Positions 28,385 to 51,745 of a DNA stretch of 64,000 bases are shown here, piece by piece. This DNA comes from an uncultured Bacteroidota bacterium (GTDB lineage Bacteria > Bacteroidota > Bacteroidia > Bacteroidales > WCHB1-69): the NCBI GenBank assembly GCA_902802755.1, contig CADCNH010000001.1:262202-326201 (forward strand). Direction: 5' to 3'. The notes under the pieces were generated by a model. The model saw nothing but the letters and a program-made list of their open reading frames with translations, was not told the DNA's origin and made no database searches. Every line of letters begins with the position of its first letter. The stretch's first letter is position 1. Position numbers and translations under genes: made by a program.

Positions 28385-28403
28385 ACAATAAGGAGGTTTT
28401 TCA

Positions 28404-30197
28404 ATGTCAAATTACAAGTATCACATATTGATTTGTGGCGGTACAGGATGCCATGCGTCTGAAAGTGCCAAAATCAAAACGAATTTTGAAACTATTTTAG
28501 CAGAAAAGAACCTGGCTAATGACGTGCAAGTGATTGGTACCGGTTGCTTCGGCTTCTGCGAGAAAGGCCCTATCGTTAAGATTCTGCCCGACAACACTTT
28601 CTATGTTCAGGTAAAACCTGAAAACGTGGAAGAAATTATCAACGAGCACATCATCAAGGGTCGTAAAGTGGAACGCTTGCTGTATGTTGACCCCAAAACC
28701 CAGCAGCACAAGGAAGACTCCAAACACATGGGCTTCTACAAGAAACAGATGCGTATCGCTTTGCGTAACTGCGGTTTCATCAATCCTGAAAACATCGACG
28801 AGTACATCGCTCGCGACGGTTACAAAGCTTTGGCCAGCGTGTTGGAAAGAAACGATCCTGAAGCTACTATCGAAGATATCAAGAAATCAGGCCTCCGCGG
28901 TCGTGGTGGCGCTGGCTTCCCCACAGGTATGAAATGGAGCCTCTGCCGTCAGAACAGCGCTGACCAGAAATACATGATCTGCAACGCTGACGAAGGTGAC
29001 CCGGGTGCATTTATGGATCGTTCCATCCTGGAAGGTGACCCGCACACTGTCATCGAAGCTATGGCTATCGGTGGTTTCTGTATCGGTGCCACCAAGGGTT
29101 TGATTTATATCCGTGCCGAATATCCGCTGGCTATCCACCGTTTGCAGGTGGCTATCTCCCAGGCTCGCGAAATCGGTCTGCTCGGTCCCGACATCCTCGG
29201 TTCAGGCTTCGATTTCGACATCGAATTGAGATACGGTGCTGGCGCATTCGTATGCGGTGAGGAAACCGCTCTGATCCACTCCATGGAAGGTATGCGTGGT
29301 GAACCTACTTTCAAACCGCCATTCCCCGCCGTTCAGGGTTACTTGAAGAAACCCTCTAACGTGAACAACGTTGAGACATTCGCTAACATTCCCGTTATCA
29401 TCAACAAGGGTTGGGAATGGTTCAGCTCAATCGGAACAGAAAAATCAAAAGGTACGAAGGTGTTCGCTTTGGCCGGTCAGATCAACAACGTCGGTTTGAT
29501 CGAGGTGCCTATGGGTATCACCCTTCGTGAAATCATTTATGAAATCGGTGGCGGTATCAAGGGCGGCAAGAAATTCAAAGCCGTTCAGACCGGTGGTCCT
29601 TCAGGCGGTTGCTTGACCGAGAAGTTCCTCGATACTCCTATTGATTATGAAAACCTCGTGGCAGCAGGCTCTATGATGGGTTCTGGCGGTATGATTGTTA
29701 TGGACGAGACTTCCTGTATGGTTTCAGTGGCCAAGTTCTATTTGGACTTCACTGTTGAAGAGTCTTGCGGTAAGTGCTCTCCCTGCCGTATCGGTAACAA
29801 GAGAATGTGCGAAATTCTCGACAAGATTACCAAAGGTCATGGTACCATGGAAGACCTGGACGAACTGCGTAACCTCGCCCACGTTATCAAAGACACAGCT
29901 CTCTGCGGCTTAGGACAGACTTCTCCCAACCCCGTATTGTCAACCATCGACAACTTCTGGGATGAGTATGTTGCCCACGTTGTGGATAAGAAATGCCCCG
30001 CCGGTCAGTGCAAGGCTCTGAAACAGTATGTTATCGATCCTGACAAGTGTAAGGGATGTACCGCTTGCGCAAGAAATTGCCCGGTTAACGCCATCTCCGG
30101 CACAGTGAAGAATCCGCACGAAATCGACCAGAAGGCTTGTATCAAATGCGGCACTTGCTATGAAAAATGTAAGTTTAACGCAATTAGTATAATATAA
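28404..30197 (+). CDS. hydB: NuoF-like NAD(H)/FMN subunit of bifurcating [FeFe] hydrogenase (HydB)
   Basis: 597 aa. N-terminal ILICGGTGCHAS 2Fe-2S domain, GLRGRGGAGFPTG FMN site, ESCGKCSPCR N3 cluster, and a C-terminal 2x[4Fe-4S]. Confidence 0.9.
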   Translation: MSNYKYHILICGGTGCHASESAKIKTNFETILAEKNLANDVQVIGTGCFGFCEKGPIVKILPDNTFYVQVKPENVEEIINEHIIKGRKVERLLYVDPKTQQHKEDSKHMGFYKKQMRIALRNCGFINPENIDEYIARDGYKALASVLERNDPEATIEDIKKSGLRGRGGAGFPTGMKWSLCRQNSADQKYMICNADEGDPGAFMDRSILEGDPHTVIEAMAIGGFCIGATKGLIYIRAEYPLAIHRLQVAISQAREIGLLGPDILGSGFDFDIELRYGAGAFVCGEETALIHSMEGMRGEPTFKPPFPAVQGYLKKPSNVNNVETFANIPVIINKGWEWFSSIGTEKSKGTKVFALAGQINNVGLIEVPMGITLREIIYEIGGGIKGGKKFKAVQTGGPSGGCLTEKFLDTPIDYENLVAAGSMMGSGGMIVMDETSCMVSVAKFYLDFTVEESCGKCSPCRIGNKRMCEILDKITKGHGTMEDLDELRNLAHVIKDTALCGLGQTSPNPVLSTIDNFWDEYVAHVVDKKCPAGQCKALKQYVIDPDKCKGCTACARNCPVNAISGTVKNPHEIDQKACIKCGTCYEKCKFNAISII

Positions 30198-30211
30198 AAA
30201 GCACATAATCA

Positions 30212-32002
30212 ATGGATACAGTAAAATTAACAATAGATAATAGAGAAGTTGAAGTGCCGAAAGGTACAACTATTCTGAAAGCCGCTCAGAAACTGGGTAT
30301 CGATATTCCTACCCTCTGTCATTTTGAGCTGGAAAATCTGCATGTTCACAACAGACCAGGCGGATGCCGTATTTGCGTGGTTGAGGTGGAAAAACGTAGA
30401 AACCTCGCTCCTGCCTGCGTTACCGAATGTATGGAAGGCATGGTAGTGAAAACCAACTCCATCCGTGTAATCAATGCCCGTAAAACCGTGTTGGAACTGA
30501 TCCTCAGCGACCACCCGGCAGATTGTTTGCAGTGCGCCAAGAGCGGCAGATGCGAATTGCAAGACCTTGCTGTCCGCTTCGGTATCCGCGAAAATCCTTA
30601 TATCGGAAGCAATCACGAAATGTCAAGCTATCAGGTGGAAGTTTCTCCTTCCATCATCCGCGATATGAACAAGTGCGTTATGTGCCGTCGTTGCGAAATG
30701 ATGTGTAACGAAATGCAGACCGTGGGTGCCCTGTCAGCTATCGAACGTGGTTTCCCGGCAGTGGTCTCCACCGCTTTCAACCAGCATCTGGATCACTCAC
30801 CCTGTACCTTCTGCGGTCAGTGTGTGGCAGTATGCCCCGTTGGTGCTTTGACCGAGGTTGACCATACCTCCAAAATCATCCGCGCTATCGCTGATCCTAC
30901 CAAGAAGACCGTTGTACAGGTGGCTCCCGCTGTGCGTGTGGCCCTCGGTGAAGAATTCGGTATGGAACCCGGTTCTATCGTTACTGGCAAGCTGACCGCC
31001 GCTCTGAAAGCTCTCGGTTTCGACTATGTATTCGATACTGACTGGAGCGCCGACTTGACCATCATGGAAGAAGGTACCGAGCTCATCGGCCGTCTGACCA
31101 AATATTTGGCTGGCGACAAGAGTGTTCCGCTTCCCATCCTCACTTCATGCTGCCCCGCTTGGGTGAAATTCTTCGAACACCAGTTCCCCGATATGTTGGA
31201 TCTTCCTTCAACCGCTAAATCACCGCAGCAGATGTTTGGCGCTATCGCCAAATCATATTTCGCAGAGAAGATCGGTTGCAAGCGCGAGGACATGATCAGT
31301 GTATCTGTGATGCCCTGCTTGGCCAAGAAATACGAAGTTGGCCGTGATGAGTTCAAGGTGAACGGTAATCCTGATGTGGATTATTCAATCTCTACTCGTG
31401 AGTTGGCTCGCTTGATTAAGTTGGCTAATATCGACTTCACCGCTCTTCCGGATGAGAAATTCGACAGTCCTCTTGGCGAATCAACCGGTGCCGCTGTTAT
31501 CTTCGGTACCACTGGTGGTGTAATCGAAGCCGCCGTTCGTACCGCTTACGAAGTGATTACTAAGAAACCTCTCCCGAAGATCGACTTCGAAGAACTCCGT
31601 GGTCTGGAAGGTGTTCGTTCGGCTACCGTTGATGTTGACGGCCTGAAACTGAACATCGGTATCGCTCACGGTCTGGGCAACGCCCGTAAGTTGTTGGAAG
31701 ACATCAAGGCAGGTAGGAGCCAGTTCCATGCTATCGAAATCATGGCATGTCCTGGTGGTTGTATCGACGGTGCCGGTCAGCCTCAGCACCATGGTAATAG
31801 TGATATTATCAAGGCTCGTTGGGAAGCTATCTACCGTGCCGATAGAGAAATGCCTATCCGTAAATCTCACGAGAACCCGTCCATCCAGGCTATCTACAAA
31901 GAATATCTGGGCGAACCTTGCGGTCACAAGTCACACGAATTGTTGCACACGCATTACTTCGACAGACAGACCACCGTGGAAGTGGATGTGGACAAAAAGT
32001 AA
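30212..32002 (+). CDS. hydA: [FeFe] hydrogenase catalytic subunit, group A (HydA)
   Basis: 596 aa. N-terminal 2Fe-2S and 4Fe-4S domains. H-cluster motifs TSCCPAW, MPCLAKKYE and EIMACPGGCIDGAGQP. Confidence 0.95.
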   Translation: MDTVKLTIDNREVEVPKGTTILKAAQKLGIDIPTLCHFELENLHVHNRPGGCRICVVEVEKRRNLAPACVTECMEGMVVKTNSIRVINARKTVLELILSDHPADCLQCAKSGRCELQDLAVRFGIRENPYIGSNHEMSSYQVEVSPSIIRDMNKCVMCRRCEMMCNEMQTVGALSAIERGFPAVVSTAFNQHLDHSPCTFCGQCVAVCPVGALTEVDHTSKIIRAIADPTKKTVVQVAPAVRVALGEEFGMEPGSIVTGKLTAALKALGFDYVFDTDWSADLTIMEEGTELIGRLTKYLAGDKSVPLPILTSCCPAWVKFFEHQFPDMLDLPSTAKSPQQMFGAIAKSYFAEKIGCKREDMISVSVMPCLAKKYEVGRDEFKVNGNPDVDYSISTRELARLIKLANIDFTALPDEKFDSPLGESTGAAVIFGTTGGVIEAAVRTAYEVITKKPLPKIDFEELRGLEGVRSATVDVDGLKLNIGIAHGLGNARKLLEDIKAGRSQFHAIEIMACPGGCIDGAGQPQHHGNSDIIKARWEAIYRADREMPIRKSHENPSIQAIYKEYLGEPCGHKSHELLHTHYFDRQTTVEVDVDKK

Positions 32003-36090: not shown

Positions 36091-36151
36091 TTTTGAAAAA
36101 AATTCCTCCCTGATGCCGCATGTGTTGGTTATATCGACTTCCTATCCCCTT
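36091..36151. repeat. direct repeat copy A (~55 bp)
   Basis: ttttgaaaaaaattcctccctgatgccgcatgtgttggttatatcgacttcctatcccctt. Matches 36704-36762. Confidence 0.85.
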
Positions 36152-36193
36152 CAGCTCACCGGGTGAATTACCTCGTACGATTTGTTAGTTCAA

Positions 36194-36490
36194 TCACATT
36201 CTCGAACTACAAATCCTATTTTTGTATTCTAAATATTTGCTGTGTTGTCCCCGACCATTTTTTAAGGTGAAAAAATTGCACCTTAAAAAATCATATTCTT
36301 CTTTTGTTAGCTCAAACATAAAATCTGTAGGAAATCGCACTATATTCATTCTTACTGCTCGCTTCAGATTTTTAGTCTCAATTCCATAAAGGGCGGCAAG
36401 GTCACTGTCAATCATTACATTTCTTCCACGTACATCATAGATAAATGGTTTTATACTGTCTGGACTAACTAGGTCAATTTTATTTTCCAT
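36194..36490 (-). pseudogene. truncated ORF6N (KilA-N-like DNA-binding) domain gene
   Basis: 98 aa. Aligns to the N-terminus of the 202-aa paralog at 60676-61284 up to GRGQHSKYL, then diverges and stops. Confidence 0.6.
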
Positions 36491-36703
36491 AAATATGAAT
36501 TTAAAACGTTTTATGCCCGCAAAGTTACAATATCCAAATCATAAAATCAATAGTAATAATACAGTTAATTTGCTTAAAATCAATACTTTGATAAATTGTA
36601 TTTTTTGTTCCAAAGGTGGACAAAACTGATGGAAAAGATGCATAAAAGCAGGGATAAATGTTTTGGGATTTTTCAAGAGTTGCAAGAAGGGAGGTGATGA
36701 ATT

Positions 36704-36762
36704 TTGGAAAAAAAAACATCCCTGATGCCGCATGTGTTGGTTATACCGACTTTCTTCCCCCT
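36704..36762. repeat. direct repeat copy B (~55 bp)
   Basis: ttttggaaaaaaaaacatccctgatgccgcatgtgttggttataccgactttcttccccctt. Confidence 0.85.
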
Positions 36763-37065
36763 TGGTAGAAATGTCTCCATGGTGTAGATTTTTCTCAGGC
36801 CGGAGGTTTGCGGGTATTGTGGATTTTACGGCAGAGCCCCAACCACCGCATTGGCGCGAACATAACCTACATACTACCCTCGTAGAGGGTTCAATATCAA
36901 TAGACGTTGGCGTTATCCCGTTATTTCCCTGCGGTGCGGGTGTTGTGTGCGCCGAAGCACGGAACAAGGCCACCGCGGAAGGGGTAAATTAGAGCTGATG
37001 CGGTAAATATCATGCTATTGCTGTGTCATAATTTTCCGAATGATTTTTCATTCACATTATTTTGT

Positions 37066-37073
37066 TATTTTTG
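37066..37073 (+). promoter_or_regulatory. -7 promoter box (TATTTTTG) for the T5orf172-WYL operon
   Basis: 29 nt upstream of the ATG at 37102. A TTTG lies upstream at 37061-37064. Confidence 0.55.
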
Positions 37074-37101
37074 CAAATCAAATACGTAATACAAATAAAA
37101 T

Positions 37102-37785
37102 ATGACTAATGAGCCACATGAAGGGTATGTGTATATCCTTACAAATCAGAGTTTCAAAGAAGATTGGGTGAAAATAGGAAAGAGCTCTCGTCCTGTAGAT
37201 GTGCGCTCTAAGGAATTGGATAATACAGCAGTCCCGCTTCCTTTTGAGATTTACGCCACAATGAAAACCTGCAAATATAACGAGGTTGAGAAATTGGTAC
37301 ATAAAACAATTGACCGACTCACAGATTTGCGAATCCGACAGAATCGGGAGTTTTTCAATGTTGCGCCACAAGTAGCATTAGATATTTTCAGAGATATAGC
37401 TATTACGATAGATGATGCGGAAGTGACATTGTATGAGAATAACCAACCGATAAAAGAGTCAAAATCAAAAAACAAAGAAGAATCGGTACTAAAGCTGCAT
37501 AGTAAACATAATCCTCGTCCAAGGTTCAAATTCAGTATGGTGGATATCCCAATTGGTTCTACGCTGATTTTTATTCCTACTGGATTGCAAGTGAAAGTTG
37601 CCAGTGATGATCAAGTGGAATATGAAGGACGCATTTATAAGCTTTCACCATTTGTGGGAACATTTATGCCCGAAGAAAAGCGTAATACTTCCGGCTCATA
37701 TCAAGGTGCAAAGTTTTTTACATACCATGGCCGAGTATTGGATGATTTGAGAACGGAGAAGGAAAAAGAAATTGGAGAGGAATAA
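37102..37785 (+). CDS. GIY-YIG-like T5orf172 (MUG113) domain protein with DUF4357-like C-terminal domain
   Basis: 227 aa with GYVYILTN...VKIGKS...RSKEL...PFEI...REFF. The C-terminal FKFSMVDIPIGSTLIF...VEYEGRIYKLSPF resembles DUF4357 (from memory). Confidence 0.7.
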   Translation: MTNEPHEGYVYILTNQSFKEDWVKIGKSSRPVDVRSKELDNTAVPLPFEIYATMKTCKYNEVEKLVHKTIDRLTDLRIRQNREFFNVAPQVALDIFRDIAITIDDAEVTLYENNQPIKESKSKNKEESVLKLHSKHNPRPRFKFSMVDIPIGSTLIFIPTGLQVKVASDDQVEYEGRIYKLSPFVGTFMPEEKRNTSGSYQGAKFFTYHGRVLDDLRTEKEKEIGEE

Positions 37786-37819: not shown

Positions 37820-38818
37820 ATGGCAACAAACAAGAATGCACTGATTAGATACCAGGCTTTGGATAGATGTTTTAGCAATTATCGGAAGTGTTATTACATA
37901 GAAGATCTTATCGAGGCATGTAATAATGCCTTGTCCGAATATAACAGTAGCACATCGGGAGTTCAACGAAGACAGATTTTCGATGATATAAACTTTATGA
38001 AAGACCCTTTGGGTTATGATGCGCCTATTGAATCCATTAAAGACGGTAAGCGTGTTTATTACAGGTATTCTGATAAAGAATATACTATTAATAAACAGCC
38101 TTTAAACCCAGCTGAGGCTCAAGCATTAACAGATACTATTGCTATGTTGGGTAGGTTCAAAGGTTTGCCCAATTTTGAGTGGATGGAAGAAGTGACTGGA
38201 AAGTTGGAAACTGCTTTCAGTCTAAATGATTCTCCTGATAATATTGTTGGTTTTGATCAAAATATTGACTTAAAAGGTCTAAGATTCTTTGCTCCTTTGT
38301 TTGAATATATTGTTGCAAAGAAAACAATTCGAGTGAAATATACTCCCTTTAATAAGGATACCACAGAGATTGTTATTTCACCATATTATTTGAAGCAGTA
38401 CAATAATCGATGGTTTCTATTTGGGAAATGTCAAGGTTTCGATAATCTTACAAACATTGCGTTAGACAGAATAGACAACATTAAGGAGGGGAAAGAGCCT
38501 TTTGTTGAGAATACCACCTTTGACTTCAATGAGTATTTTGAAGATATTGTCGGGGTAACTCATCCTAAAGAAGGAAAAGAACAAAAAGTTGTTTTGAAAG
38601 TTGCAGATGATTTTTTAGGCTATTTTCTAACAAAACCCGTCCATGGTTCTCTAAAGAAACGGTCAACTAATATCTTTGAACTGAAACTTATCCCTAATTA
38701 CGAATTGGAAATATATTTGTTTAGTCATTCTGATAAAATAAAAGTACTCGAACCTGAATCTCTCAAAATTGCTATTCTCAACAGGATAGAAGAGGCTTTG
38801 GAATGTCAGGAAAAATAA
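37820..38818 (+). CDS. WYL-domain transcriptional regulator (BrxR/CapW-like)
   Basis: 332 aa. The N-terminal region looks wHTH-like. The central WYL core is ISPYYLKQYNNRWFLFGK, followed by a C-terminal WCX-like region. Confidence 0.8.
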   Translation: MATNKNALIRYQALDRCFSNYRKCYYIEDLIEACNNALSEYNSSTSGVQRRQIFDDINFMKDPLGYDAPIESIKDGKRVYYRYSDKEYTINKQPLNPAEAQALTDTIAMLGRFKGLPNFEWMEEVTGKLETAFSLNDSPDNIVGFDQNIDLKGLRFFAPLFEYIVAKKTIRVKYTPFNKDTTEIVISPYYLKQYNNRWFLFGKCQGFDNLTNIALDRIDNIKEGKEPFVENTTFDFNEYFEDIVGVTHPKEGKEQKVVLKVADDFLGYFLTKPVHGSLKKRSTNIFELKLIPNYELEIYLFSHSDKIKVLEPESLKIAILNRIEEALECQEK

Positions 38819-38825
38819 TTTTTAT

Positions 38826-38846
38826 CTGTGCATAATGACTGCACAG
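38826..38846. promoter_or_regulatory. perfect palindrome CTGTGCA-N7-TGCACAG (candidate operator or attenuator)
   Basis: Lies in the 80-nt gap between the WYL gene and the 1472-aa gene, just upstream of a weak TAttTTG-like box. Confidence 0.35.
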
Positions 38847-38898
38847 GTGTTTCGTTATTTTGCATCGTCAAATGATGTTGAATTTAATTTTTTGAGTC

Positions 38899-41800
38899 AT
38901 GAAAAATATTTCTTGGTCTGAAGATAAAGTTGTTTCAGTTATTAATGAGTTTAATGATGCTATTGAAAACTTGCGTGAAAAAACATCAGATTTCAAGCAT
39001 TTTGATTTTGTAAAGAGCTGTCTCTTATATATGAAACAGGCCAAGATGACGGATGCATGGGAAATCGAAGACAATATTATTGGATCTTCCATGTTGGATT
39101 ATTTCAATAAAATAACAAAATCGAAGAAAATCTCGATAAAAACAGATGATAGGCAAAAAACTGTTTTATTGCGGGATGAAATCCGCAATATATTTGATGC
39201 AACATTGGGCAAGATTCCACAAAATAAAATTAATATAGATTATTATAGGCGTCGATATATAATGAATCTGGCTATCTATTGTATCCTTAATTATGATAAT
39301 ATTGACATTTCCTCAAAACAAGATTTTTTAAAACTTGTGGATCTGTTAACTGAAACGAAAGATGCGGATAATAATTCAAAAAAAACATCTTCTCCTCATA
39401 AAATTTGGTATTTTAGTCAAGATTGTCATTTCTTTATAAAGGGGTTGGAATCCTTGATGGATTTTGTTTTCCTAAAAGAAGAAATATCATTGGAAAGTAA
39501 AATCACCTGTGAATTTAACAATCTTGAAGAAGCTTACCTGTTTTATCTTGCTTTTAGTGATGAAAAAGTAAATTTAACCTTGAAAAATTATACTGTTCTC
39601 ATAAATCAATCATCTGCTAGAGATTGTGAGAAGTTTGATGTTTATATCGACAACAATATTGATTATAGTCAAATTGATAATATAATGCGGAAACTAAAGC
39701 CTTCTGGTATTGTTGTTGCGGGATTGTCAAAGCCTATTATTAAAGGCGAGAATAATGATGTGAGAAAATTATTTGACAATCAAATGGTTAGATGTGTTAA
39801 GACTAATGGAGTTGATAGAGGTTGGTTAAAAATAAACATCAACGATAAAAAATATTATTCCGTAGATTTTTATTCATTGGAGGGTGAATATTATCGGTAT
39901 ATTATGTATGATGACATAGTTAAATTAAACTATTCTTTGGATATTGACAAATACCGTGTTCTCGAAAAAATTGATGAATTTATAGAAATTACAGATGCCC
40001 TTCCTATTGGTGAGCGACTCACCAGTGGAATACAATTTATTATTCCTTATTTCAAGAAAAATTACAAAGATTTGCTTGAAAGATGGTTGGATGGTATAAA
40101 TGATTGGGATGTCATTAAAGAGCAATGTAAGAATTATAAAGATTGTTCGGCAAGAATCCAAGTAATAGAAGCTTTCTTATATTTTCATGATTGTATTTGT
40201 GATGAGGAATATCTCAATGATGCCAAATATCAGCAGTTTCTTAATGCTATAAGAATTATTGACTCAATTGATAATGATACTTTCCAGAGATACTACCTTG
40301 ACATTATCGAACGGTTATGTAAGAACAATATCAGTGATTTTTACATGTCTCAATATCAATTTATTGAATCCCAATTAAAGGATGTCGAGAAGTCGAAAGT
40401 TGTCATTAGAAAGGATCAATTTGCTAAATTTCTTTATCCAGGAGAAATGTCTTCCAGACAAATAATATCAACAGGGGAATATGTTCTCGAATGGAGCAAT
40501 ATTCTTAATCCTCGGGCTTTAAAAGCTCAGAACATAGAAGTTGGAATGTTCGTTGATAATGATCAGCTAGAAAGTTCTATTTGTACTGCTACACAATATA
40601 TTATTTTCAATGCATATAATAATAAGTTTTATGAAATTGACCACAATGATGATTGGATGACGGATGTAATTATTGACATTCATAATGATATTCGTGGTAT
40701 AAGTTACCATTTTGATTCCTATGAAAACGATGATACTTCTATATTAGTGGAACTTAATCCAGGCGGAACATTAGTGAACTTTGTGATGAAAAAAGATTTG
40801 GAAGAATGTCAAGACATAATTGAATATTACATCACAAACAACCTCATTGAAAAAGTTATTAGCCTTAACAATCGCTATCTGCTTTTTATTTCGAAAGATA
40901 AGAAAGATGACAAAGTTATTTTAGCGAAGTTCAACCATATAGACGATGAAAGATGGATGGAATCCTATCCAGCAATGATAGAAGAGTTGGCTTTGCAAAA
41001 AGACACCCAACATGTGAGAATCTTGTCGAATGAGGATTTTGCAAAAAATAACTATTCACTTTCCACTGAACATTACTTTACAACTGAGGTGTCCACCGGT
41101 GTAGAGACCATTCTTCACTCCATAGTGTCACGACATCGTGGAAAATATGCCTTGATAGACATTCTTCTGAATGTGTTAGTGAGAATCGGCACACTATACC
41201 ATCAAGGGGATGAGGATTCCTTCATCAATTCTCTTGATGTAAAGAAGTTAAGTGAGGTGTATGACAGTTTGCAGGAATATGAAGAATATTTGATGGATCA
41301 TTACAGAGAATGTGTTGATGCCATTATCAATATCTTTGGTTCAGAAGATGCTTCGTACGAATTTTTTCAACCTGAGGTGGCGAAATTAATGGTGGCACTC
41401 CAAGGTTCCAACAAAATTCAGAAGTTGTATAATCCATTTGCTGGCCCAGCCACTTTCTCGTGTTTTTTGCCAGAGTCCATTTATTGTGGTAATGAAATCA
41501 ATAAGTCCATTCATACATTAGGTTTATTCAGGTTAGATGCCCACGGATTGGATCAGCAAGGATTTCATTGTGAGGACTCGGTAGATTTTGTACAATTACT
41601 TCCTAATAAGGAAAAGTATGATACGATTCTTTCTATTCCGCCTTTTATACCCAAAGAGGAGCAATCTCTGTATAGTTTTCTGTTTGATGAATGTATGTCA
41701 CATCTGAAGAAAACCGGCAAAATGACCATTGCTGTTCCTGCAGGTTTCACATTCAATAGCTCACCCAAAATGCAGGCTATTCGTCAAAAACTCGTTGAGA

Positions 41801-43317
41801 ACAATTGGGTAGAAAAAGTGATAGCTTTACCCAAAGGCAGTTTCCGAGGAACTAATGTGGGCACATGCTTGATTCAGTTTTCAAAGAAGTCTAATCGTGA
41901 AGTGCTATTCTGTGATGCGACTCAAATGGTTAAGCACAATAGAAATAAAGTAGAAATTCAAACTGACGATATTGTTGCTGCAGTCAAAAATATAGATACC
42001 GACTATTGTTATAGTATTTCTTATTCAGAGATTATCAACAACAACTATTCTATTAATCCCATCGTGTATAAACCATCCCCAACACAAGAAGGATTGACTA
42101 CATTCAAATTGGGTGACTTAATGACAAGTGTTCAACCTGAGAAATTTTCTGATGATACAGGATTGATTTTCTCTCCAGACTTGCTTTCATCTGATGTGGT
42201 GGATTACCATAGAACATTATCGGATTTAAAAATGGATTTTCTCAACGATTTGATGGTAAAAGTGCAGGGTGAGGCATTATTACTTTCGTCCATTCAAGGT
42301 TCCTTAAAGCCCACATACTTGGAGGTTAGTCCGGATGTTTGTTATTATGTTAATCGCAACATTCTGGCCTTCAAAGTAGATACAAATAAGGTATTGCCCG
42401 CTTATTTATGCTATGCATTAACTCAGCCAGAAGTATTACACCATATTGACTTTTTTAGAACTGGTGTTATTGCCAATATTATTTCTGATGATTTATTAAA
42501 CATCCATATCAATTTGCCAAAATTATCTGCACAAAGAAGCATGGTTTATGAAGTTTCTCGCCAGCGATATGCGGAGAAAAAACAGGAACTTGCCATGATG
42601 TATGGGACCGCTTATACGGAGAAAGAGGAAGAGTTTAAGTCCTTGAGGCATGCCATGCGTCCTTCTGTGACAGGTATTAGCTCCGCTGTAGATAATCTAT
42701 ACAACTATTTTGAAAAAACGGGGCAGTTATCCACAGTTGTCCATGGGCGCAGAGGATCAACTATTGCGGATAAACTTGCTGTGATTAAGAATGAAATTCA
42801 TCATATATCTGTTCTTATTAAACAAGGTGCCGATTTTTTGGATATTTCAAAATATCCATTGACTTCAGTAACTGTTGGAGACATCTGGAATCATGTGAAT
42901 TATGAGACAGAAAAATTTACTATCAGTAAATCAAAGTCTTTGGTTGATACCATAGCAGATTTTACTGTCAGGATGAATCTTGATTTGTTTAAGATGTTAA
43001 TTAATCTCATTATGTCAAACGCAGAGGTGCATGCTTTCTCAAATAATGATTCTGCAAATAATGTTCGAGTAGAAGCCACTTGTGATAACGAATCGCTTAC
43101 AATGTATATATCCAATAATGGAAAACCATTTCCCAAAGATGTGGATATCAAAAATTTCACCAAGAGATATTGGTCTGCAGGAGAACATGGGGGCAGTGGA
43201 GTAGGTGGAAATGATATTCTGAAAATCATGATGGCTTTTCAAGGCAAGTTTGAGCTTAAAACCGCTTACAAGGATTCATACCCAACATGCTATGTGTTAA
43301 AATTCCCTATTGAATAG
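38899..43317 (+). CDS. giant multidomain protein: 2 degenerate MTase-like modules + N6-adenine-MTase-like module + HsdS-type TRD + histidine-kinase transmitter (HisKA-like + HATPase_c)
   Basis: 1472 aa. Motif I LYNPFAGPATF (41431-41457). Motif IV-like SIPPF (41632-41646). TRD hallmarks FKLGDL, NRNILAFKV and INLPKLSAQRSMV. H-box SLRHAMRPSVTGI (His at 42649-42651). N box LIMSNAEVHAF. G boxes SNNGKPF and GGSGVGG. Confidence 0.75.
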   Translation: MKNISWSEDKVVSVINEFNDAIENLREKTSDFKHFDFVKSCLLYMKQAKMTDAWEIEDNIIGSSMLDYFNKITKSKKISIKTDDRQKTVLLRDEIRNIFDATLGKIPQNKINIDYYRRRYIMNLAIYCILNYDNIDISSKQDFLKLVDLLTETKDADNNSKKTSSPHKIWYFSQDCHFFIKGLESLMDFVFLKEEISLESKITCEFNNLEEAYLFYLAFSDEKVNLTLKNYTVLINQSSARDCEKFDVYIDNNIDYSQIDNIMRKLKPSGIVVAGLSKPIIKGENNDVRKLFDNQMVRCVKTNGVDRGWLKININDKKYYSVDFYSLEGEYYRYIMYDDIVKLNYSLDIDKYRVLEKIDEFIEITDALPIGERLTSGIQFIIPYFKKNYKDLLERWLDGINDWDVIKEQCKNYKDCSARIQVIEAFLYFHDCICDEEYLNDAKYQQFLNAIRIIDSIDNDTFQRYYLDIIERLCKNNISDFYMSQYQFIESQLKDVEKSKVVIRKDQFAKFLYPGEMSSRQIISTGEYVLEWSNILNPRALKAQNIEVGMFVDNDQLESSICTATQYIIFNAYNNKFYEIDHNDDWMTDVIIDIHNDIRGISYHFDSYENDDTSILVELNPGGTLVNFVMKKDLEECQDIIEYYITNNLIEKVISLNNRYLLFISKDKKDDKVILAKFNHIDDERWMESYPAMIEELALQKDTQHVRILSNEDFAKNNYSLSTEHYFTTEVSTGVETILHSIVSRHRGKYALIDILLNVLVRIGTLYHQGDEDSFINSLDVKKLSEVYDSLQEYEEYLMDHYRECVDAIINIFGSEDASYEFFQPEVAKLMVALQGSNKIQKLYNPFAGPATFSCFLPESIYCGNEINKSIHTLGLFRLDAHGLDQQGFHCEDSVDFVQLLPNKEKYDTILSIPPFIPKEEQSLYSFLFDECMSHLKKTGKMTIAVPAGFTFNSSPKMQAIRQKLVENNWVEKVIALPKGSFRGTNVGTCLIQFSKKSNREVLFCDATQMVKHNRNKVEIQTDDIVAAVKNIDTDYCYSISYSEIINNNYSINPIVYKPSPTQEGLTTFKLGDLMTSVQPEKFSDDTGLIFSPDLLSSDVVDYHRTLSDLKMDFLNDLMVKVQGEALLLSSIQGSLKPTYLEVSPDVCYYVNRNILAFKVDTNKVLPAYLCYALTQPEVLHHIDFFRTGVIANIISDDLLNIHINLPKLSAQRSMVYEVSRQRYAEKKQELAMMYGTAYTEKEEEFKSLRHAMRPSVTGISSAVDNLYNYFEKTGQLSTVVHGRRGSTIADKLAVIKNEIHHISVLIKQGADFLDISKYPLTSVTVGDIWNHVNYETEKFTISKSKSLVDTIADFTVRMNLDLFKMLINLIMSNAEVHAFSNNDSANNVRVEATCDNESLTMYISNNGKPFPKDVDIKNFTKRYWSAGEHGGSGVGGNDILKIMMAFQGKFELKTAYKDSYPTCYVLKFPIE

Positions 43318-43356: not shown

Positions 43357-44532
43357 ATGTCATATAAAGTATTATGGGTGGACGATGAATATGACACCCC
43401 GGCTTTACAAGAAGTTGCTGATTTAGCCTATGATAGAGGCATTAATATGGAAACCGGATGCAAATCAGCGGAAGAAGCATTGGCTCACTTGGAACATCCA
43501 AATGATTTTGACGCAGTAATTTTAGATGCACGATTCTTCAAATCAAAAAATGATACTATTGAAAGTCTTGGGAGGATGAAAGGACTACGGGAAGTAACAA
43601 AACGAATAGAACAATTAAAATCAGGCGGTTGTTATTTGCCTACATTTATCTATTCAGGTCAACCTGAGATATACAAGACAGAAGATTATTCTGACAATTA
43701 TGGGGAATATCCGTTGTTTCCTAAAGATGACGAAGGCACATATAAACTTTTCGATGCTATCATTAAAACGGTAAATGAAAGGGTTGAAACACAAATAAAA
43801 CTGAAATATGCCCCACTCTTTGATGTATGTGTTCCACGATATATGTTCAATTCTAATCTGACAGAACGACTATTGAATTATGCGGGACAACTTGAGCATA
43901 ATGATACGAAAAAAGTTGAGTATCTGAATGATATGAGGAAGCTAATAGAAGAGTTTTTTGGAAAATGTGAAGACGTTAGGCTTTTACCTTCCGGTTTAAC
44001 ATCGTGGACTGACAAAAGTAAGTTTCTGTGTGAAATTAAGATGCAAAAATTTATTCCAGCGTATGTCCAAGAATCCATCCGATTCATCCTCCGATGCACC
44101 CAAGAAGGATCCCATTATAGTGTTGCAGATTCTGATATGCGTAATGGAGTATCTCCTTTTTTGTTTCGCTCTTTGTTCTTCTCACTTTCTAATGTATTAG
44201 TTTGGTGGAAACAGTTTATTGACAGTAATCCAGATAAAGAGGAAATCAGTAAAGTTGTTATGGAGGATGGTCAGAACCAACAAGAAGTAAAATATTCAAA
44301 AGTAGAATTAAAGGGAGAAAAGGTCAAAGAATTTCAACCACAATCTAATAGTTATTTGGTTGAAAAGGATGATGAGGGATATTACCACTGTGGACCATAT
44401 CTGATGTCTCAAAAACATGGGAGCATCGTTGTAGGCAAAAAAGTTGTTATTGTTGAAGAAGAGGACAACACAAATTCAAATAGTCAAATATATCCCAAAT
44501 TTGCAAAACAGGTAAAAGTGGTGGGTAAGTGA
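43357..44532 (+). CDS. receiver (REC) domain protein with uncharacterised effector-like C-terminal region
   Basis: 391 aa. VLWVDDE acidic pair, AVILDARF (D57, nt 43525-43527), FIYSGQ and LFPKD. Middle region has RCTQEGSH (44092-44115). The C-terminal ~75 aa has a cold-shock/OB-like pattern. Confidence 0.7.
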   Translation: MSYKVLWVDDEYDTPALQEVADLAYDRGINMETGCKSAEEALAHLEHPNDFDAVILDARFFKSKNDTIESLGRMKGLREVTKRIEQLKSGGCYLPTFIYSGQPEIYKTEDYSDNYGEYPLFPKDDEGTYKLFDAIIKTVNERVETQIKLKYAPLFDVCVPRYMFNSNLTERLLNYAGQLEHNDTKKVEYLNDMRKLIEEFFGKCEDVRLLPSGLTSWTDKSKFLCEIKMQKFIPAYVQESIRFILRCTQEGSHYSVADSDMRNGVSPFLFRSLFFSLSNVLVWWKQFIDSNPDKEEISKVVMEDGQNQQEVKYSKVELKGEKVKEFQPQSNSYLVEKDDEGYYHCGPYLMSQKHGSIVVGKKVVIVEEEDNTNSNSQIYPKFAKQVKVVGK

Positions 44533-44757: not shown

Positions 44758-45780
44758 ATGGCAAAATCATCTTCAATTGATAGAAACGACTTGATGTTTT
44801 TCGAAATATGCGGAAGACAATACAAACTGACAGAATATGACGATGCAATTAAAGAAAATGAGGAATCACTAGCAAATTACTATTCTTTCCTCCAAGAGTT
44901 TCCTTATACAATCAGAAAATTATCTAGAGAATCGTTAGCATCGATTAAGGATGCTCCTGTTTTTTTGTTATATCGTAACAAAAGGATAAGTGTGTATGAA
45001 TTTCTTATAAGTAGCCGACTCTTTGAATCTCAACTTTCTCTTATTAAAGAAATCAACGGTCTAGAAATAAAATATGGATTGGCTAATAAGTTGATTGATA
45101 TACAGCAAAAAAAAGAAAATTATGCTATAAAAATAGAAACATATAGAGTCTTTCAGGATTTACATTATACAATGGCAACGGCCCGATGGGCATTAATACA
45201 GGCACATCGTATATTACATTTCAGTAGTAGTTTAAAATGGATAACAGGTTGGGAACAACTTTGGACACGTGCCACATGGTTAAACAATGCAATTCTTTTA
45301 TACAACTCCTGCTTTGACAAGTTGATATTATCAATATGGATTGGTTGTAAGGTTTTTGTTGGTTATTTAAAGAAAAATAGTAAGCCAGAAAAGGCACTCA
45401 ATATACAAAACTTAAATTCACAGGAAGGATTAAATCTGGTATATGAATGGTGTGATTATAATAAAATTAAAAATCGCTTGCCAGAAAAAATAAAAAACGA
45501 TATTAACTTAAAATATACAAACGAGCTAAAAAGAGTGAGAAATTATGCCAATAGAATTAAACACAGGGGTGGTATGAGATATAAAGACTTGTTTCCTTAT
45601 GACAATACTTACGATATTATTGAAGACACATTCTATGCTTCTACAAGAACACAAATATCTGATGATATAGATGATATTGTGGAAGAAGTGAAGAATTATC
45701 ATATTGTCTTATATGATTTGATACAAAAAGTTTATGAATACATTATAGGAGAAGTGTTTGATCAGGAGATTCATGAATAG
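44758..45780 (+). CDS. hypothetical protein (all-helical; possible HEPN-like C-terminal half)
   Basis: 340 aa, AT-rich. It has an LKRVRNYANRIKHRG helix, but the R-to-H spacing is outside the canonical Rx4-6H. Confidence 0.55.
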   Translation: MAKSSSIDRNDLMFFEICGRQYKLTEYDDAIKENEESLANYYSFLQEFPYTIRKLSRESLASIKDAPVFLLYRNKRISVYEFLISSRLFESQLSLIKEINGLEIKYGLANKLIDIQQKKENYAIKIETYRVFQDLHYTMATARWALIQAHRILHFSSSLKWITGWEQLWTRATWLNNAILLYNSCFDKLILSIWIGCKVFVGYLKKNSKPEKALNIQNLNSQEGLNLVYEWCDYNKIKNRLPEKIKNDINLKYTNELKRVRNYANRIKHRGGMRYKDLFPYDNTYDIIEDTFYASTRTQISDDIDDIVEEVKNYHIVLYDLIQKVYEYIIGEVFDQEIHE

Positions 45781-45814: not shown

Positions 45815-46474
45815 TTATATTGACATATTCTTCCACTTCTCGGGGATTCTGAAAGATTTATCACCGGCAGTAACTACATCATCCATAATGGATTTCAGGA
45901 ATCGGGGTAGGTTGTTTTTCATCAAGACAGGCTTGCTACGGTGCTGCAATAGCTTGTCTTTTATGTCATAACTATAATTTGTTGGGGGAAAATATACCTT
46001 GATGTTTTTCTGAGGAAATAATCTCTGTATATAGTCCAAAGGAGGGATAAGGTCGCTATCGGCACTCACTAAAGCTACTGTGTCTGTTTTGTCTTCCATG
46101 CAATCAGCTAACATTCGTACCGAAATGTTCACATCTGTTCTTTTCTCTTCTGGCTTTGAAATCGTCGCATTGCAGAAAGGGCAAGGGAAATATTTTTCCA
46201 TGTATTGTCCTCTAACAATCTCAAATTTTTCTCCGTTAATTAGTTTGTTTGCGTTAAGAAAAGAACTTTGACGACTGTTTTTTGACGGATTCATCGGACT
46301 AGCGGTAAAATAGACAACTTTTTCAAGTGTTTGATTTTCCCCAAGGAAACTCTCGCACAGTTTTACAACATCAATCCAATAACATTTTCCCCAATTTCTG
46401 TCTATGCTACGGGCTCGTTTAATTCCAAAATAGAAATTAAAACCATCAATATAGAAGGTAACTCTCTTTGTCAT
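45815..46474 (-). CDS. NYN (LabA-like PIN-fold) domain protein
   Basis: 219 aa with FYIDGFNFY, EKRTDVNISV and LVSADSDLIPP, plus a CPFC insert. Confidence 0.8.
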   Translation of the reverse strand: MTKRVTFYIDGFNFYFGIKRARSIDRNWGKCYWIDVVKLCESFLGENQTLEKVVYFTASPMNPSKNSRQSSFLNANKLINGEKFEIVRGQYMEKYFPCPFCNATISKPEEKRTDVNISVRMLADCMEDKTDTVALVSADSDLIPPLDYIQRLFPQKNIKVYFPPTNYSYDIKDKLLQHRSKPVLMKNNLPRFLKSIMDDVVTAGDKSFRIPEKWKNMSI

Positions 46475-48281: not shown

Positions 48282-49757
48282 TTATTTTCTAACCTTCTTC
48301 ACAAACTCTTCTACTTCGGGAACACCGCCTTGATAGACGAGGTAGCCGTCGTAGGGCTCGCGTTTGGTGATTTCGTCGTTGATGGGGGTGAGCATCAGCT
48401 TCTTCACATCCTCGCGCTTCTGGCCGCTGTCCTTGGTCAAACCTAATGCCCAGCCGAGCTTGATGTAAGAGCTTTCCGCTAACATGTTGTCTGCGGGGAT
48501 GATACCGCGTGCCATCATGTCACGGCCGGTGTCATACACAAACATGTGAGTGTAACCCCAGATGGTCTGTACACTCATGTATTGGTGAACACCAGCGTCA
48601 GTAGCTTTCTGGATGGCATCGTACATGACCTTATTGACATGACCGAGGCCGGTGCCGTCCCAAACAATGCCTTTGTAGCCATTGTCGATGAGGGCTTCCA
48701 GCACATCGGGTTTCATACCTGGATAGTAGTACAGAATGGCTACACGGTCGTCGAAAGTCGGCACAATACGGGTGACATTCGGGTCGTTGATGGCAAGGCT
48801 ACGCTTGTAATCCTCGTAGTTGGTGATAACTTCCACTTGGCGGTGCTGTCCTTTGCGGCGGTGGTTGTACACTTCCTTGATGGGCTGTACGCCATCGCGG
48901 CGATTCACGGTAGCCAGCGGTGTGTCGCCAATGGTACGGAAAGTGGAGCGGTAAGAGCTGTGCATCTTACGTACACGCGTGCCACGATGCAGGAAACCGT
49001 AGTCGTCGCTGGTGGGACCGAACATGCAGACCATCACCTCGGCGATGTCACCGTGACCAGCAGCGGTCATGGCGTGCATCAGGTTCAAAGCGGCATCGGA
49101 GCTGGGACGGTCAGAAGAACGTTGTGAACCCACCAATACCACTGGCATGGGCATATTCTGGCACATGTAAGTCAAAGCGGCAGCAGTGTGAGCCAAAGTA
49201 TCGGTACCGTGACCAATTACAATACCCTCGATACCAGCCTTGATTTCATCACCAATTTTGTTGGCCAAAGCCATATATTCTTTCGGGGACATGTTCTCGG
49301 AGAATACAGCGAAAACTTTCTCGGTCTCCAAGTTGCAGATGTCGGCCAGTTCGGGCACAGCACCATACAATTCGCCGGGAGAGAATGCGGGAATTACCGC
49401 ACCCGTACGGTAGTCCAAACGGGAAGCGATGGTACCACCAGTACCTAACAGTTTTACGTGGGGCAGACCGGGAGTGTAGGGGAATTCCTTCTCCGGAATC
49501 TTGAAAACGGGCTGCGGGTCGCGCTCGCCTTTCATGTCGGTGATGGTGTCAATGTCAATACCGATATTGTAACCGGTGCTGACTTTCATCACAATGTGGA
49601 TGTCGTCGGTGTTTTCCGCACGGGGCAGAATCTTTCCCGAGAAATGTCCGCGGGTGGTTTCCACTTCGGCTTTGTCCCACACGTGAACGTCGTATTTTTT
49701 GAGCGTTTCTAATGCGCGTCCCTTATATCCTTGGAATGTTTTTTTATCGTCGTCCAT
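48282..49757 (-). CDS. gatD: archaeal-type Glu-tRNA(Gln) amidotransferase subunit D (GatD)-like; asparaginase-family
   Basis: 491 aa. GatD-type N-terminal domain (GKILPRAENTDDIHIVMKVSTGYNIGI). Asparaginase motifs LGTGGTIAS and GHGTDTL. Confidence 0.75.
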   Translation of the reverse strand: MDDDKKTFQGYKGRALETLKKYDVHVWDKAEVETTRGHFSGKILPRAENTDDIHIVMKVSTGYNIGIDIDTITDMKGERDPQPVFKIPEKEFPYTPGLPHVKLLGTGGTIASRLDYRTGAVIPAFSPGELYGAVPELADICNLETEKVFAVFSENMSPKEYMALANKIGDEIKAGIEGIVIGHGTDTLAHTAAALTYMCQNMPMPVVLVGSQRSSDRPSSDAALNLMHAMTAAGHGDIAEVMVCMFGPTSDDYGFLHRGTRVRKMHSSYRSTFRTIGDTPLATVNRRDGVQPIKEVYNHRRKGQHRQVEVITNYEDYKRSLAINDPNVTRIVPTFDDRVAILYYYPGMKPDVLEALIDNGYKGIVWDGTGLGHVNKVMYDAIQKATDAGVHQYMSVQTIWGYTHMFVYDTGRDMMARGIIPADNMLAESSYIKLGWALGLTKDSGQKREDVKKLMLTPINDEITKREPYDGYLVYQGGVPEVEEFVKKVRK

Positions 49758-49783
49758 ATCAGTTTACAATTAACATTTTACAA

Positions 49784-51745
49784 TTAACAATTAATAATTT
49801 CCTTGGCCAATGTAGTCATGGAGAGGTTGCCCAGTGCTTGTGCTCGCACTTGGCCGAGGAGGCTGTTTTTCTTGTCCTCTGCGGTGGTACGGGAGCGCAT
49901 GGGTTTGAAATTACTGCTCAGATTGCTGAGGTTTTTCAAAATTTCTTCTTTGGAAACTTTACGGTAGCCTGCAAGTTTCAGCAGTTCGGAGAAGTCAGCC
50001 TTCGGCTGCTCGAACATCAGCTTCAGCATATCGGCTGCGATGGCCTTGTCCAGACCTTCTTGTTTCAGGAAGGCGAAGAGGTCGAAGATTCTGCAGGTGC
50101 AGAAAGGAATCTGGCCATATTGTCCGTGCAGATGTTTGAGTCTGTGACCAAAGAAAGTGCCGATAAATTTCGGACACATATCCAGTTCAGTGACGATTTT
50201 CTTGATCCGCGGGAAGAAATTATGGGTGAAAATGTAGTTGAAGCAGTCTTGCGGTACACCCCAGGCAACCATTTGTGCGTAGCGGTCAGCAACAGCATCG
50301 GGGATATTCTTGCTCAACTCATCGATATAGTCGGCATGCAATGGAATGGGAGCCGAGTCGGTGTCGGGATACATACGGTCGGCACCGGGCAGCACACGCT
50401 CGAAAATGGTGGTGCCGTCGGGCAGGGCCTTACGGGTCTCGAAGGGAACACCGTCAAAGGTCATCAGGGCACGCTCTTCTATCACTTCCAAAGCGGTTTT
50501 TACATCGTCTTCGGGAGCCCAGAAAATGATTTGGGCATCGTTTTCGCCAGCGTTCAACGCCTTGGCGGCTTTCTCGAAAACGCTACGGCTTACCACATCC
50601 TCAAGGTCTTCGCTGGAAGCCATATTGGGACGCTCAATACAAGCGATAACTTTCAGTCTATCTGCAAACTCGCAGTAGAAAGGATGACCTGGCTGAGTGA
50701 AGTGTGACAACAAACCAGCAAATTGCGGCAGGTTAACCGCATATACTTTCTCGCCACGCTTTATGGCGTCGGTAATCGGGTCAAAATAGAAATGGAACTG
50801 CTTGGGATCCAGTTCGGTGAAAGCCATCTTCCAATCTTCTTTTTTAATACGGGCTTTCAGTTGGTCACGGATGGCGAGCAAAGCCCACTGGCGGAAGCAT
50901 TCCACATGAGTGACCTCAGGAATCCATTTGGTGTGGGCAACACCCTTCACCTCGATACGAGTACCGCCTTTGCAGCTCACGTTCACATCCTGGCGGCCAG
51001 CGCCGATGCCAGTACGCACACGGCCGGTGCTACGGTTGAGGAAGCGGATATAGTTGCCAGCTTCTTCCACCTCATCTGGATTAACCATTTCAGGATAGGT
51101 TACCGTTTCAATCAAAGGCATACCCAGACGGTCGGTGCGGTAGATACGGGTATGGCCGATATCGGATACCTCGCGGCAGGCGTCTTCCTCTACGCTGAGC
51201 TGGATAAGGCGCACCTTCTTGTTTTTCAGCTGGATCTCACCATCAATACCTAAAATGGCGGTTCTTTGGAATCCTGTCGGGATGGAACCGTCGAGGTATT
51301 GCTTACGGGTGATATGCACCTCGCCCACAATTTTCAGTTTGGAAGCCAAAGCGATTTCCAAGGCATATTGCAATGCTTCCGGGTTGATGGGAAATGGCGG
51401 GGTGTCATCTACCTCGTAGGTACATGCGGTCTTGTGAGCAATGCGGTAGATGATGTTCTTTCGGGTTTTGAACTCCATAAGTGCGGTGCCGTCATACTCT
51501 CCCATTTCGGAAAGAGTGGGACGCATGTGACGCAACAGCTCGGCATCGTACTCGTCGGCTTTCTGGAATATGCCGGCGGGACAGCGGCAGAACAATTTTT
51601 CTTTGGTAGCCAGTTGCTGGTGAACTTCCAAGCCCGACATGAACCCGATGCGGTCGTAGTCGGCCTGCTTGGCTTGCTTACGGTCAACATAGCCGATGGC
51701 TTTTTTGCTGGCTTCGTAATTTTCTTGAGGGTTGATAGTTTGCAT
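49784..51745 (-). CDS. gatE: archaeal-type Glu-tRNA(Gln) amidotransferase subunit E (GatE)-like
   Basis: 653 aa. GatB/E catalytic core with GLEVHQQL...KLFCRCP (the HQQL form typical of GatE), an inserted domain, and a C-terminal YqeY-like tail. Confidence 0.75.
   Translation of the reverse strand: MQTINPQENYEASKKAIGYVDRKQAKQADYDRIGFMSGLEVHQQLATKEKLFCRCPAGIFQKADEYDAELLRHMRPTLSEMGEYDGTALMEFKTRKNIIYRIAHKTACTYEVDDTPPFPINPEALQYALEIALASKLKIVGEVHITRKQYLDGSIPTGFQRTAILGIDGEIQLKNKKVRLIQLSVEEDACREVSDIGHTRIYRTDRLGMPLIETVTYPEMVNPDEVEEAGNYIRFLNRSTGRVRTGIGAGRQDVNVSCKGGTRIEVKGVAHTKWIPEVTHVECFRQWALLAIRDQLKARIKKEDWKMAFTELDPKQFHFYFDPITDAIKRGEKVYAVNLPQFAGLLSHFTQPGHPFYCEFADRLKVIACIERPNMASSEDLEDVVSRSVFEKAAKALNAGENDAQIIFWAPEDDVKTALEVIEERALMTFDGVPFETRKALPDGTTIFERVLPGADRMYPDTDSAPIPLHADYIDELSKNIPDAVADRYAQMVAWGVPQDCFNYIFTHNFFPRIKKIVTELDMCPKFIGTFFGHRLKHLHGQYGQIPFCTCRIFDLFAFLKQEGLDKAIAADMLKLMFEQPKADFSELLKLAGYRKVSKEEILKNLSNLSSNFKPMRSRTTAEDKKNSLLGQVRAQALGNLSMTTLAKEIINC

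Follow-up and report, generated by a model that had tools for sequence, protein, structure and literature searches.

A response regulator with a candidate HEPN-type output domain in a mobile Bacteroidota module that pairs it with a methylase-like histidine kinase

What does a response regulator do when its output region resembles no known transcription factor? This question is raised by a 64,000-nucleotide stretch of contig CADCNH010000001.1 from an uncultured Bacteroidales bacterium, hereafter called the window, in which a gene at 43357–44532 (+) encodes a protein of 391 amino acids (aa). An earlier note on this DNA described the protein as a receiver domain fused to an unassigned effector region with a HEPN-like Rx6H motif and a cold-shock-like tail, and proposed that it targets RNA in abortive infection under the control of phosphorylation. 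We find that the protein carries an intact receiver (REC) domain and that its output region is non-DNA-binding and without a curated family. Its gene forms part of a self-contained, horizontally mobile module consisting of a WYL regulator, a histidine kinase with a methylase-like and target recognition domain (TRD) sensor, and the REC-effector itself. The module is real, conserved and undescribed in the literature that we searched, and it is a variant of the defensive two-component theme in which the response regulator probably acts as a phosphorylation-triggered anti-phage suicide switch.

The N-terminal part of the protein is a receiver by sequence, fold and profile. The open reading frame (ORF) is genuine, its translation is identical to the 391-aa protein quoted in the earlier note, and D9, D10, D57, S100 and K123 all stand where that note had placed them as receiver hallmarks. 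We counted conservation over 173 non-redundant members of the family, or over 70 diverse members where a count is given out of 70. D9/D10, D57, S/T100 and K123 are kept in 166–172 of the 173, far above chance, with D10, D57, S/T100 and K123 each kept in 172. In an AlphaFold2 (AF2) model of the protein, with a predicted local distance difference test score (pLDDT) of 81 overall, the N-terminal domain adopts a (beta/alpha)5 fold at pLDDT ~90. Foldseek aligned the full model with StyR, PorX, RssB, FixJ, PhoP and DesR over their REC domains only, at template modelling (TM) scores of 0.6–0.73 relative to the target, and a profile of the 70 diverse members (A3) matched the PorX receiver in the PDB (E 4e-5). 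The fold and profile matches thus agree with the earlier note that this is a response regulator. Scans of the 391-aa protein against Pfam, NCBIfam and PADLOC gave no match, receiver included; Pfam Response_reg stays below threshold for this protein and matches weakly in 6 of 100 relatives.

The protein belongs to a large family. A word-indexed search returned 32 close relatives, mostly metagenomic, and the few with a named source come from Bacteroidales metagenome-assembled genomes and are annotated by NCBI as 'response regulator'. An exhaustive profile search reached 1159 clusters at 50% identity (E <= 1e-3), with 708 at E <= 1e-10. Most of these profile matches span positions 2 to ~300, covering the receiver and the helical domain behind it, and a subset reaches the C-terminal domain too. 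The family is found mainly in Bacteroidota of rumen and marine samples, and it also occurs on a plasmid carried by a clinical Myroides species.

What is the helical domain that follows the receiver? Several weak lines of evidence converge on DUF4145, a member of the HEPN superfamily (PMC3710099), which comes out on top in two independent hidden Markov model (HMM) libraries. When the 70 diverse members were scanned singly against Pfam, DUF4145 was the commonest family (4 members, best E 6.7e-4), and a second, non-overlapping set of 100 gave DUF4145 again (2 members, E 0.08). The family consensus likewise has DUF4145 as its top Pfam match (E 0.052, 14 bits, profile positions 37–75 of 88). In PADLOC, a vote over members placed PD-T7-4 first (2 members, E 1e-3); this is RAZR, a DUF4145 protein and, by experiment, a HEPN RNase dependent on R146 and H154 (PMC13017515). 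Foldseek of an output-only model listed weak matches to HEPN structures at E 0.7–4, namely Csm6 (6tug), HepT (6m6u, 6m6w, 7bxo, 5yep) and 1wwp.

The modelled anatomy of the domain is also compatible with the published description of HEPN proteins. In that description the motif stands where core helix 3 ends and the next loop starts, with a polar residue after the arginine; helices 2 and 3 are parted by an insert, and helix 2 bears another conserved motif of charged residues (PMC3710099). In our AF2 model the output helices run from 168–180, 188–206, 235–248 and 267–289, and two short helices (217–231) separate the second and third long ones. Helix 188–206 holds N-x-x-R194-K-x-x-E198, and helix 235–248 ends in [TSC]-[QN]-x-[GA]-S-H, which places H253 where helix 3 ends, four residues after a Q or N. 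H253 and R194 are each invariant (173/173); E/D198 is kept in 162 of 173, Q/N249 and S252 in 150 each, and N191 in 52/70. The conserved output set is therefore R194 and E198 on helix 2, followed by [QN]249-x-[GA]-S252-H253. The pattern [small]-[QN]-x-[GA]-S-H may parallel the DUF4145 motif.

The motif that first drew attention to this domain was R246-CTQEGS-H253, which the earlier note had read as an Rx6H HEPN signature, and only its second half survives. H253 is invariant and occupies the HEPN motif position. Its supposed partner is an arginine in just 6/70 diverse relatives, which makes R246 a feature of the window protein's lineage only, and the R246...H253 pair is not conserved among homologues, an outcome that the earlier note had itself named as refuting. 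The spacing alone is no evidence, since at least one Rx4-6H turns up in 48% of shuffles that preserve the composition of the 391-aa protein.

A number of observations weigh against the HEPN assignment. No HEPN-type match reaches a curated threshold (the gathering threshold of DUF4145, PF13643, is 23.1 bits), and the 391-aa protein itself matches neither DUF4145 in Pfam nor PD-T7-4 in PADLOC. Foldseek of the output-only model (pLDDT 78.6) against the PDB and BFVD gave nothing significant (best E 0.37), generic four-helix bundles are interspersed with the weak HEPN matches, and PDB profile searches with alignments A2, A4 and A6 yielded no match for the output domain. H253 sits in a low-confidence loop of the AF2 model. 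The canonical HEPN arginine is absent at the family level, where only H253 and Q/N249 are kept, and in RAZR the motif arginine is required for defence (PMC13017515). HEPN families that have the histidine and lack the arginine are nonetheless on record, namely c2405 and PaREP1/8 (PMC3710099). The family most similar to the output is HEPN, in line with the earlier note, while every match to it stays below the curated threshold. Weighing these points, we think the output domain is probably a HEPN homologue of a divergent DUF4145 type.

The sub-threshold scores of all the HEPN similarities leave some room for a new, non-HEPN output fold, which could carry an HPt-like phosphotransfer histidine, bind a small molecule, or recruit an effector as an interaction domain. 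Among the Foldseek matches are FAT domains, vinculin tails, designed bundles and the HPt protein 1yvi (E 2.1) as well, and the AF2 model places the invariant histidine in a solvent loop. Yet the same HEPN family ranks first in both HMM libraries. HPt domains, moreover, typically carry an HxxKG pattern, whereas H253 is preceded by G-S and has no K-G after it, and the module encodes no second receiver. We consider a new fold unlikely, and return to the DUF4145-type HEPN reading in what follows.

Behind the helical domain, a disordered linker (aa 305–330 in the AF2 model) leads to a small C-terminal beta domain that we call type A. Its elements follow the order b1-b2-(b3)-helix-b4-b5 of an OB-fold, the third strand being probable, and D338, N371 and Y379 are invariant within the type. 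Among the 173 members, 94 have a type A tail, 35 a second kind (type B), and 44 none or another. Type B is a true cold-shock domain (CSD), with profile matches to Csp structures at E 4e-9 to 1e-5, and the tails of paralogs match Pfam CSD, OB_RNB, S1CSD-TOTE-2 and Rho_RNA_bind. The presence of cold-shock tails in the family suggests that the substrate or ligand is a single-stranded nucleic acid, in all likelihood RNA. The window's own tail shows no such similarity: hhalign relates type A to the true cold-shock tails of type B at 3% probability, and type A has no Pfam match (cold-shock PF00313 included) and no PDB profile match. The tail sequence that the earlier note quoted is correct and the position is one where true cold-shock domains occur in the family (35/173), whereas a cold-shock identity for the window's tail does not hold up.

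A receiver needs a source of phosphoryl groups, and is one encoded nearby? The gene directly upstream encodes a 1472-aa protein laid out as an N-terminal extension, an N6-adenine-methylase-like domain (N6_Mtase at aa 863–1058, Pfam E 4e-19, with PADLOC MTase_I and Specificity_I matches), an HsdS-like TRD, a DHp domain with an H-box, and HATPase_c. This is a real histidine kinase, because the H-box histidine and the N and G boxes are invariant; the N540, H544 and G598–G603 columns do not vary in kinase alignment A5. The methylase part is altered in a telling way. Kinase-fused copies read SIPPF, STPPF, SSPPF or NPPL at motif IV and NPFAGxxxF at motif I, while true HsdM proteins beside such modules have NPPF in 4/4 and DPxCG(S/T)(G/A)GF. 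Because both motifs are degenerate, unlike those of neighbouring HsdM, the sensor domain is probably not an active methylase, and the comparison suggests a pseudo-enzyme that serves as sensor. We accordingly rejected an active methyltransferase as the kinase's sensor on the loss of canonical motifs IV and I, though the N6_Mtase fold match is kept. The kinases of loci L005, L010 and L012 are without the methylase part.

Kinase and response regulator travel together. The kinase gene lies directly upstream of the response regulator in every locus having upstream sequence, 14 in all (the window, L001, L004, L005, L006, L008, L010, L012, L014, L016, L018, L019, L021 and L024). A WYL homologue precedes the pair in the loci whose flanks are long enough: the order WYL regulator, kinase, response regulator recurs in the window, L001–3, L004, L006, L008, L010, L012, L014, L016, L018, L021 and L024, and in L005 the WYL gene is placed after the response regulator. 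PorX-type REC-PglZ regulators also drawn by the A2 locus scan (L020, L022 and L023) are unrelated and were left out. In or beside the module, a DUF2130 gene that may be an accessory component occurs in a marine locus and a JGI metagenome locus (L012/L013 1756–2910; L008 9041–10318). In the window, a hairpin with a 10-bp stem and a T-rich tail (38823–38849) lies between the two genes, 5 nt past the WYL stop and with 50 nt to go to the kinase start. It could uncouple transcription of the regulator from that of the effector, as an attenuator or terminator, or it could be an inverted repeat resembling an operator. A sigma-70 promoter scan was uninformative: its counts equalled those of shuffles, and the promoters of Bacteroidota are not known to match the consensus scanned for.

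One locus shows the module with a different effector. In L021 (1952–9341, Bacteroidales UBA3743), a WYL gene and a histidine kinase precede a 447-aa response regulator that combines the family-specific receiver with an unrelated output of ~320 aa that has no Pfam match. This is one clear case of output-domain swapping, and it answers the earlier note's call to look for alternative effectors beside similar kinases.

The surroundings of the module are defence-like and mobile, as judged from a low-GC island, integrase or resolvase genes near some loci, a plasmid copy, and type I restriction-modification (R-M) and HEC-09 neighbours. The window's island covers ~36.5–46.5 kb at 29–41% GC versus ~42–53% in its flanks. 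Within it, a 219-aa NYN-domain protein (45815–46474, −) matches the PADLOC candidate defence family HEC-09 (E 3e-50), which supports reading the stretch as a defence island. The plasmid copy, L024, lies at 26821–31498 of the 43-kb, mobilizable pFM-G13 (NZ_CP037428.1) of Myroides odoratimimus, a cultured and clinically relevant species. Its proteins are WP_131541125 (WYL), WP_131541126 (annotated 'N-6 DNA methylase') and WP_131541127 (the response regulator, annotated 'hypothetical'). Islands, plasmid and type I R-M neighbours together bear out the defence-like setting that the abortive-infection proposal implied.

The R-M neighbours allow another reading, in which the response regulator is an RNA-binding regulator and not a nuclease: an antiterminator or RNA chaperone under phosphorylation control, comparable to REC-ANTAR proteins or CspA/CspE, that turns on downstream R-M or defence genes. 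Co-directional type I R-M genes (HsdM/HsdS) follow the response regulator directly in L001, L006, L008 and L024, methylase-like ORFs do so in L016 and L019, and in L024 the response regulator's stop overlaps the start of HsdM, the first gene of an HsdM-HsdS-PLD set. The cold-shock or Rho-type RNA-binding domains in paralog tails and the missing HEPN arginine would suit such a role as well. Elsewhere, however, the module stands alone. No type I R-M gene follows it in the window, L004, L012 or L014; the window's downstream gene is unrelated and not co-conserved, and L004 and L012 have opposite-strand genes there. About a quarter of the family (44/173) carries no tail or another one, and the invariant arginine together with an S-H loop containing Q/N resembles a catalytic set more than an RNA-binding surface. 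On this evidence an RNA-binding regulator is the less probable account, with perhaps one chance in several, and we continue to favour a HEPN-type effector.

An ordinary transcription factor with a DNA-binding domain too divergent to recognise is very improbable, and we rejected a classical DNA-binding output: NCBI does call relatives 'response regulator' and the top whole-model Foldseek matches include full-length StyR and FixJ, but those alignments fit the REC part only (TM 0.25 relative to query, root-mean-square deviation 13 A), 170 members scanned against Pfam contain no helix-turn-helix, winged-helix or AAA+ family, and Foldseek finds no DNA-binding fold in the output-only model, in line with the earlier note, which recognised no LuxR, OmpR or NtrC-type output.

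How might these parts work as a HEPN-type defence module? In the mechanism we propose, the methylase-like and TRD domains of the kinase, having lost the canonical catalytic motif, would act as sensor. The signal would be either DNA (foreign, unmodified or modified) or a phage protein directed against type I R-M enzymes. The kinase would then autophosphorylate on H1251 and pass the phosphoryl group to D57, and phosphorylation of D57 would dimerise the receivers. The receiver dimer would join two DUF4145-type HEPN domains into a composite, metal-independent RNase site in which H253 serves as general base or acid with help from Q249 and S252, and in which R194/E198 of helix 2 take the place of the absent motif arginine. 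Single-stranded RNA would be gripped by the beta domain at the C-terminus. RNA cleavage would stop translation and abort the infection, and the WYL protein would set transcription of the operon. RNase L, Ire1 and Csm6 are likewise activated through composite HEPN assembly. Receiver dimerisation is the most economical trigger, in keeping with how HEPN enzymes are in general switched on (PMC13017515), and RNA is the proposed target because paralogs have tails of the CSD, Rho_RNA_bind, OB_RNB and S1CSD kinds.

We hold these claims with differing confidence. A defence role for the module is likely. That it is a defensive two-component system in which D57 phosphorylation switches on an RNA-targeting effector is an evenly balanced proposition, and judging from sequence the same holds for a putative RNase activity of the output and its gating by phosphorylation, which may equally prove right or wrong. 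More tentatively, a catalysis-dead type I R-M unit wired to a kinase might read the methylation of incoming DNA, or decoy anti-restriction proteins (DNA mimics), and relay the signal through His-Asp phosphotransfer to an RNase of the HEPN type with a relocated catalytic arginine. If so, the module would be the first two-component system to sense the modification of DNA or an attack by anti-restriction proteins, and its effector the first HEPN nuclease gated by a receiver.

Is this a known system? Detocs, which consists of the sensor kinase DtcA, the buffer receiver DtcB and the REC-effector DtcC, is described as the only validated defensive two-component system (10.1101/2023.01.24.525353). The module resembles it in using two-component phosphotransfer as an immune switch, in a response regulator with a cell-damaging enzymatic rather than DNA-binding domain, and in swappable effectors. 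It differs in its sensor (TPR in Detocs, methylase-like/TRD here), in its effector (PNP, restriction endonuclease, TOPRIM or transmembrane in Detocs, HEPN-like plus OB-like here), and in having a WYL regulator and no DtcB-like buffer receiver; that last absence also counts against the proposed switch. We therefore rejected membership in Detocs, as the module has no second receiver gene and both sensor and effector differ. Nor did a sequence relationship emerge: the locus proteins match only generic MTase, specificity-subunit, WYL, HEC-09 and NYN models in PADLOC, a negative that counts only as far as PADLOC-DB v2 contains Detocs models.

RAZR/PD-T7-4 is the best, though weak, profile match of the output, a helical HEPN RNase of abortive infection (PMC13017515) from a family often linked to R-M genes (PMC13017515; PMC3710099). 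RAZR has R146 and H154 (Rx7H), whereas here the histidine and a polar residue are kept and the invariant arginine lies on another helix. It is activated by assembly on phage protein rings and not by phosphorylation, and it has an N-terminal zinc finger in place of REC. The module would also share with PrrC-EcoprrI and RloC a latent HEPN RNase under type I R-M-type methylase and specificity control. In PrrC, control is exerted through direct contact with proteins and through nucleotides, whereas in the present system a histidine kinase carries the M/S-like module and the signal would pass by His-Asp phosphotransfer. Both PrrC and RloC are assigned to HEPN (PMC3710099).

Other parallels are more distant in kind. 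In RNase L/Ire1 (KEN HEPN) and Csm6/Csx1 (CARF-HEPN), an N-terminal regulatory domain assembles a composite HEPN site, as we propose here; the regulatory domain in our case is a phospho-aspartate receiver, and nothing is shared beyond the putative HEPN fold. The REC-ANTAR regulators AmiR, EutV and NasT have an all-helical, RNA-directed output. They are likewise response regulators with an all-helical output that does not bind DNA, but ANTAR is absent among the Pfam families listed, and conserved residues and genomic context differ. The module's first gene has the WYL-WCX architecture of BrxR/CapW, regulators that commonly head defence operons (cited in PMC12839542). Literature searches on REC-HEPN proteins, on fusions of methylase and kinase and on WYL/two-component defence turned up no account of the system.

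If our reading is right, the module would be a second, unrelated and widespread defensive two-component system (at least 1159 clusters at 50% identity); we know of no further validated one beyond Detocs. It would join three separately studied themes, R-M-type DNA recognition, His-Asp signalling and HEPN RNases, extend the HEPN superfamily to a form without the motif arginine, and add an RNase to the outputs of response regulators. Receiver dimerisation that assembles a HEPN site offers a simple activation mechanism. The hosts, gut and rumen Bacteroidales, are poorly covered in current defence-system catalogues, and the module on Myroides odoratimimus pFM-G13 is a convenient experimental entry point.

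Table 1. Positions in the window of the module genes and of the domains and motifs discussed in the text.
Feature	Position (nt)	Strand	Evidence
Response regulator with non-DNA-binding output, 391 aa	43357..44532	+	ORF check and translation
REC domain, aa 1-141; phospho-acceptor D57 at nt 43525-43527	43357..43779	+	AF2 fold, Foldseek, PorX profile match, conservation
All-helical output (aa 143-313), probably a divergent HEPN domain of DUF4145 type	43783..44295	+	Pfam and PADLOC votes, weak Foldseek
Helix-2 motif N191-x-x-R194-K-x-x-E198	43927..43950	+	Conservation of R194, E/D198 and N191
R246-CTQEGS-H253	44092..44115	+	H253 invariant; R246 lineage-specific
Small beta domain, type A, aa 331-391	44347..44529	+	AF2 pLDDT 84-90 in full-length model
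WYL-WCX transcriptional regulator (BrxR/CapW-like), first module gene	37820..38818	+	WYL E 4e-11, WCX E 1e-3 (Pfam); PADLOC WYL E 6.5e-24
Sensor histidine kinase, 1472 aa	38899..43317	+	Pfam, PADLOC, alignment A5
Degenerate methylase motif I, NPFAGPATF	41431..41457	+	Comparison of kinase copies with HsdM
Degenerate methylase motif IV, S912-I-P-P-F916 instead of NPPF/Y	41632..41646	+	Comparison of kinase copies with HsdM
Predicted phospho-accepting H1251 (SLRH-AMRPS)	42649..42651	+	6/6 aligned partner kinases; also L014, L024
HATPase_c, aa 1368-1470; N box SNAEVHAF, G2 box GSGVGG	43000..43308	+	Pfam E 5.5e-5 (C-terminal fragment)

The gene that follows the response regulator in the window (44758–45780, +) encodes a protein of 340 aa that matches nothing in Pfam, PADLOC or NCBIfam and has 47 homolog clusters, of which the few with a named source are Bacteroidales. 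It has an invariant K268-H-R-G-G...R274-Y motif (VRNYANRIKHRGGMRY), and an R-x7-H with A-N mid-way. It may be a separate HEPN-like gene, because this spacing equals that reported for the R146/H154 pair of RAZR/DUF4145. The protein has no homology to the product of the 336-aa gene that takes its place in L001, and hhalign found no relationship between its family and the response regulator's output domain.

Two further features mark the left edge of the island. A short ORF6N-domain ORF (36194–36490, −) lies between 61-nt direct repeats (36091–36151 and 36703–36763, 87% identical), and a T5orf172/MUG113-domain protein is encoded at 37102–37785. The stretch 36091–37785 possibly holds remnants of another mobile element. 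Beyond the island, at 48282–51745 (−), adjoin a GatD gene (GatD_N and asparaginase domains) and a GatE-like gene (GatB_N with a GAD insert, 653 aa), a pair that we take to be an archaeal-type Glu-tRNA(Gln) amidotransferase, unexpected in an apparent Bacteroidales genome.

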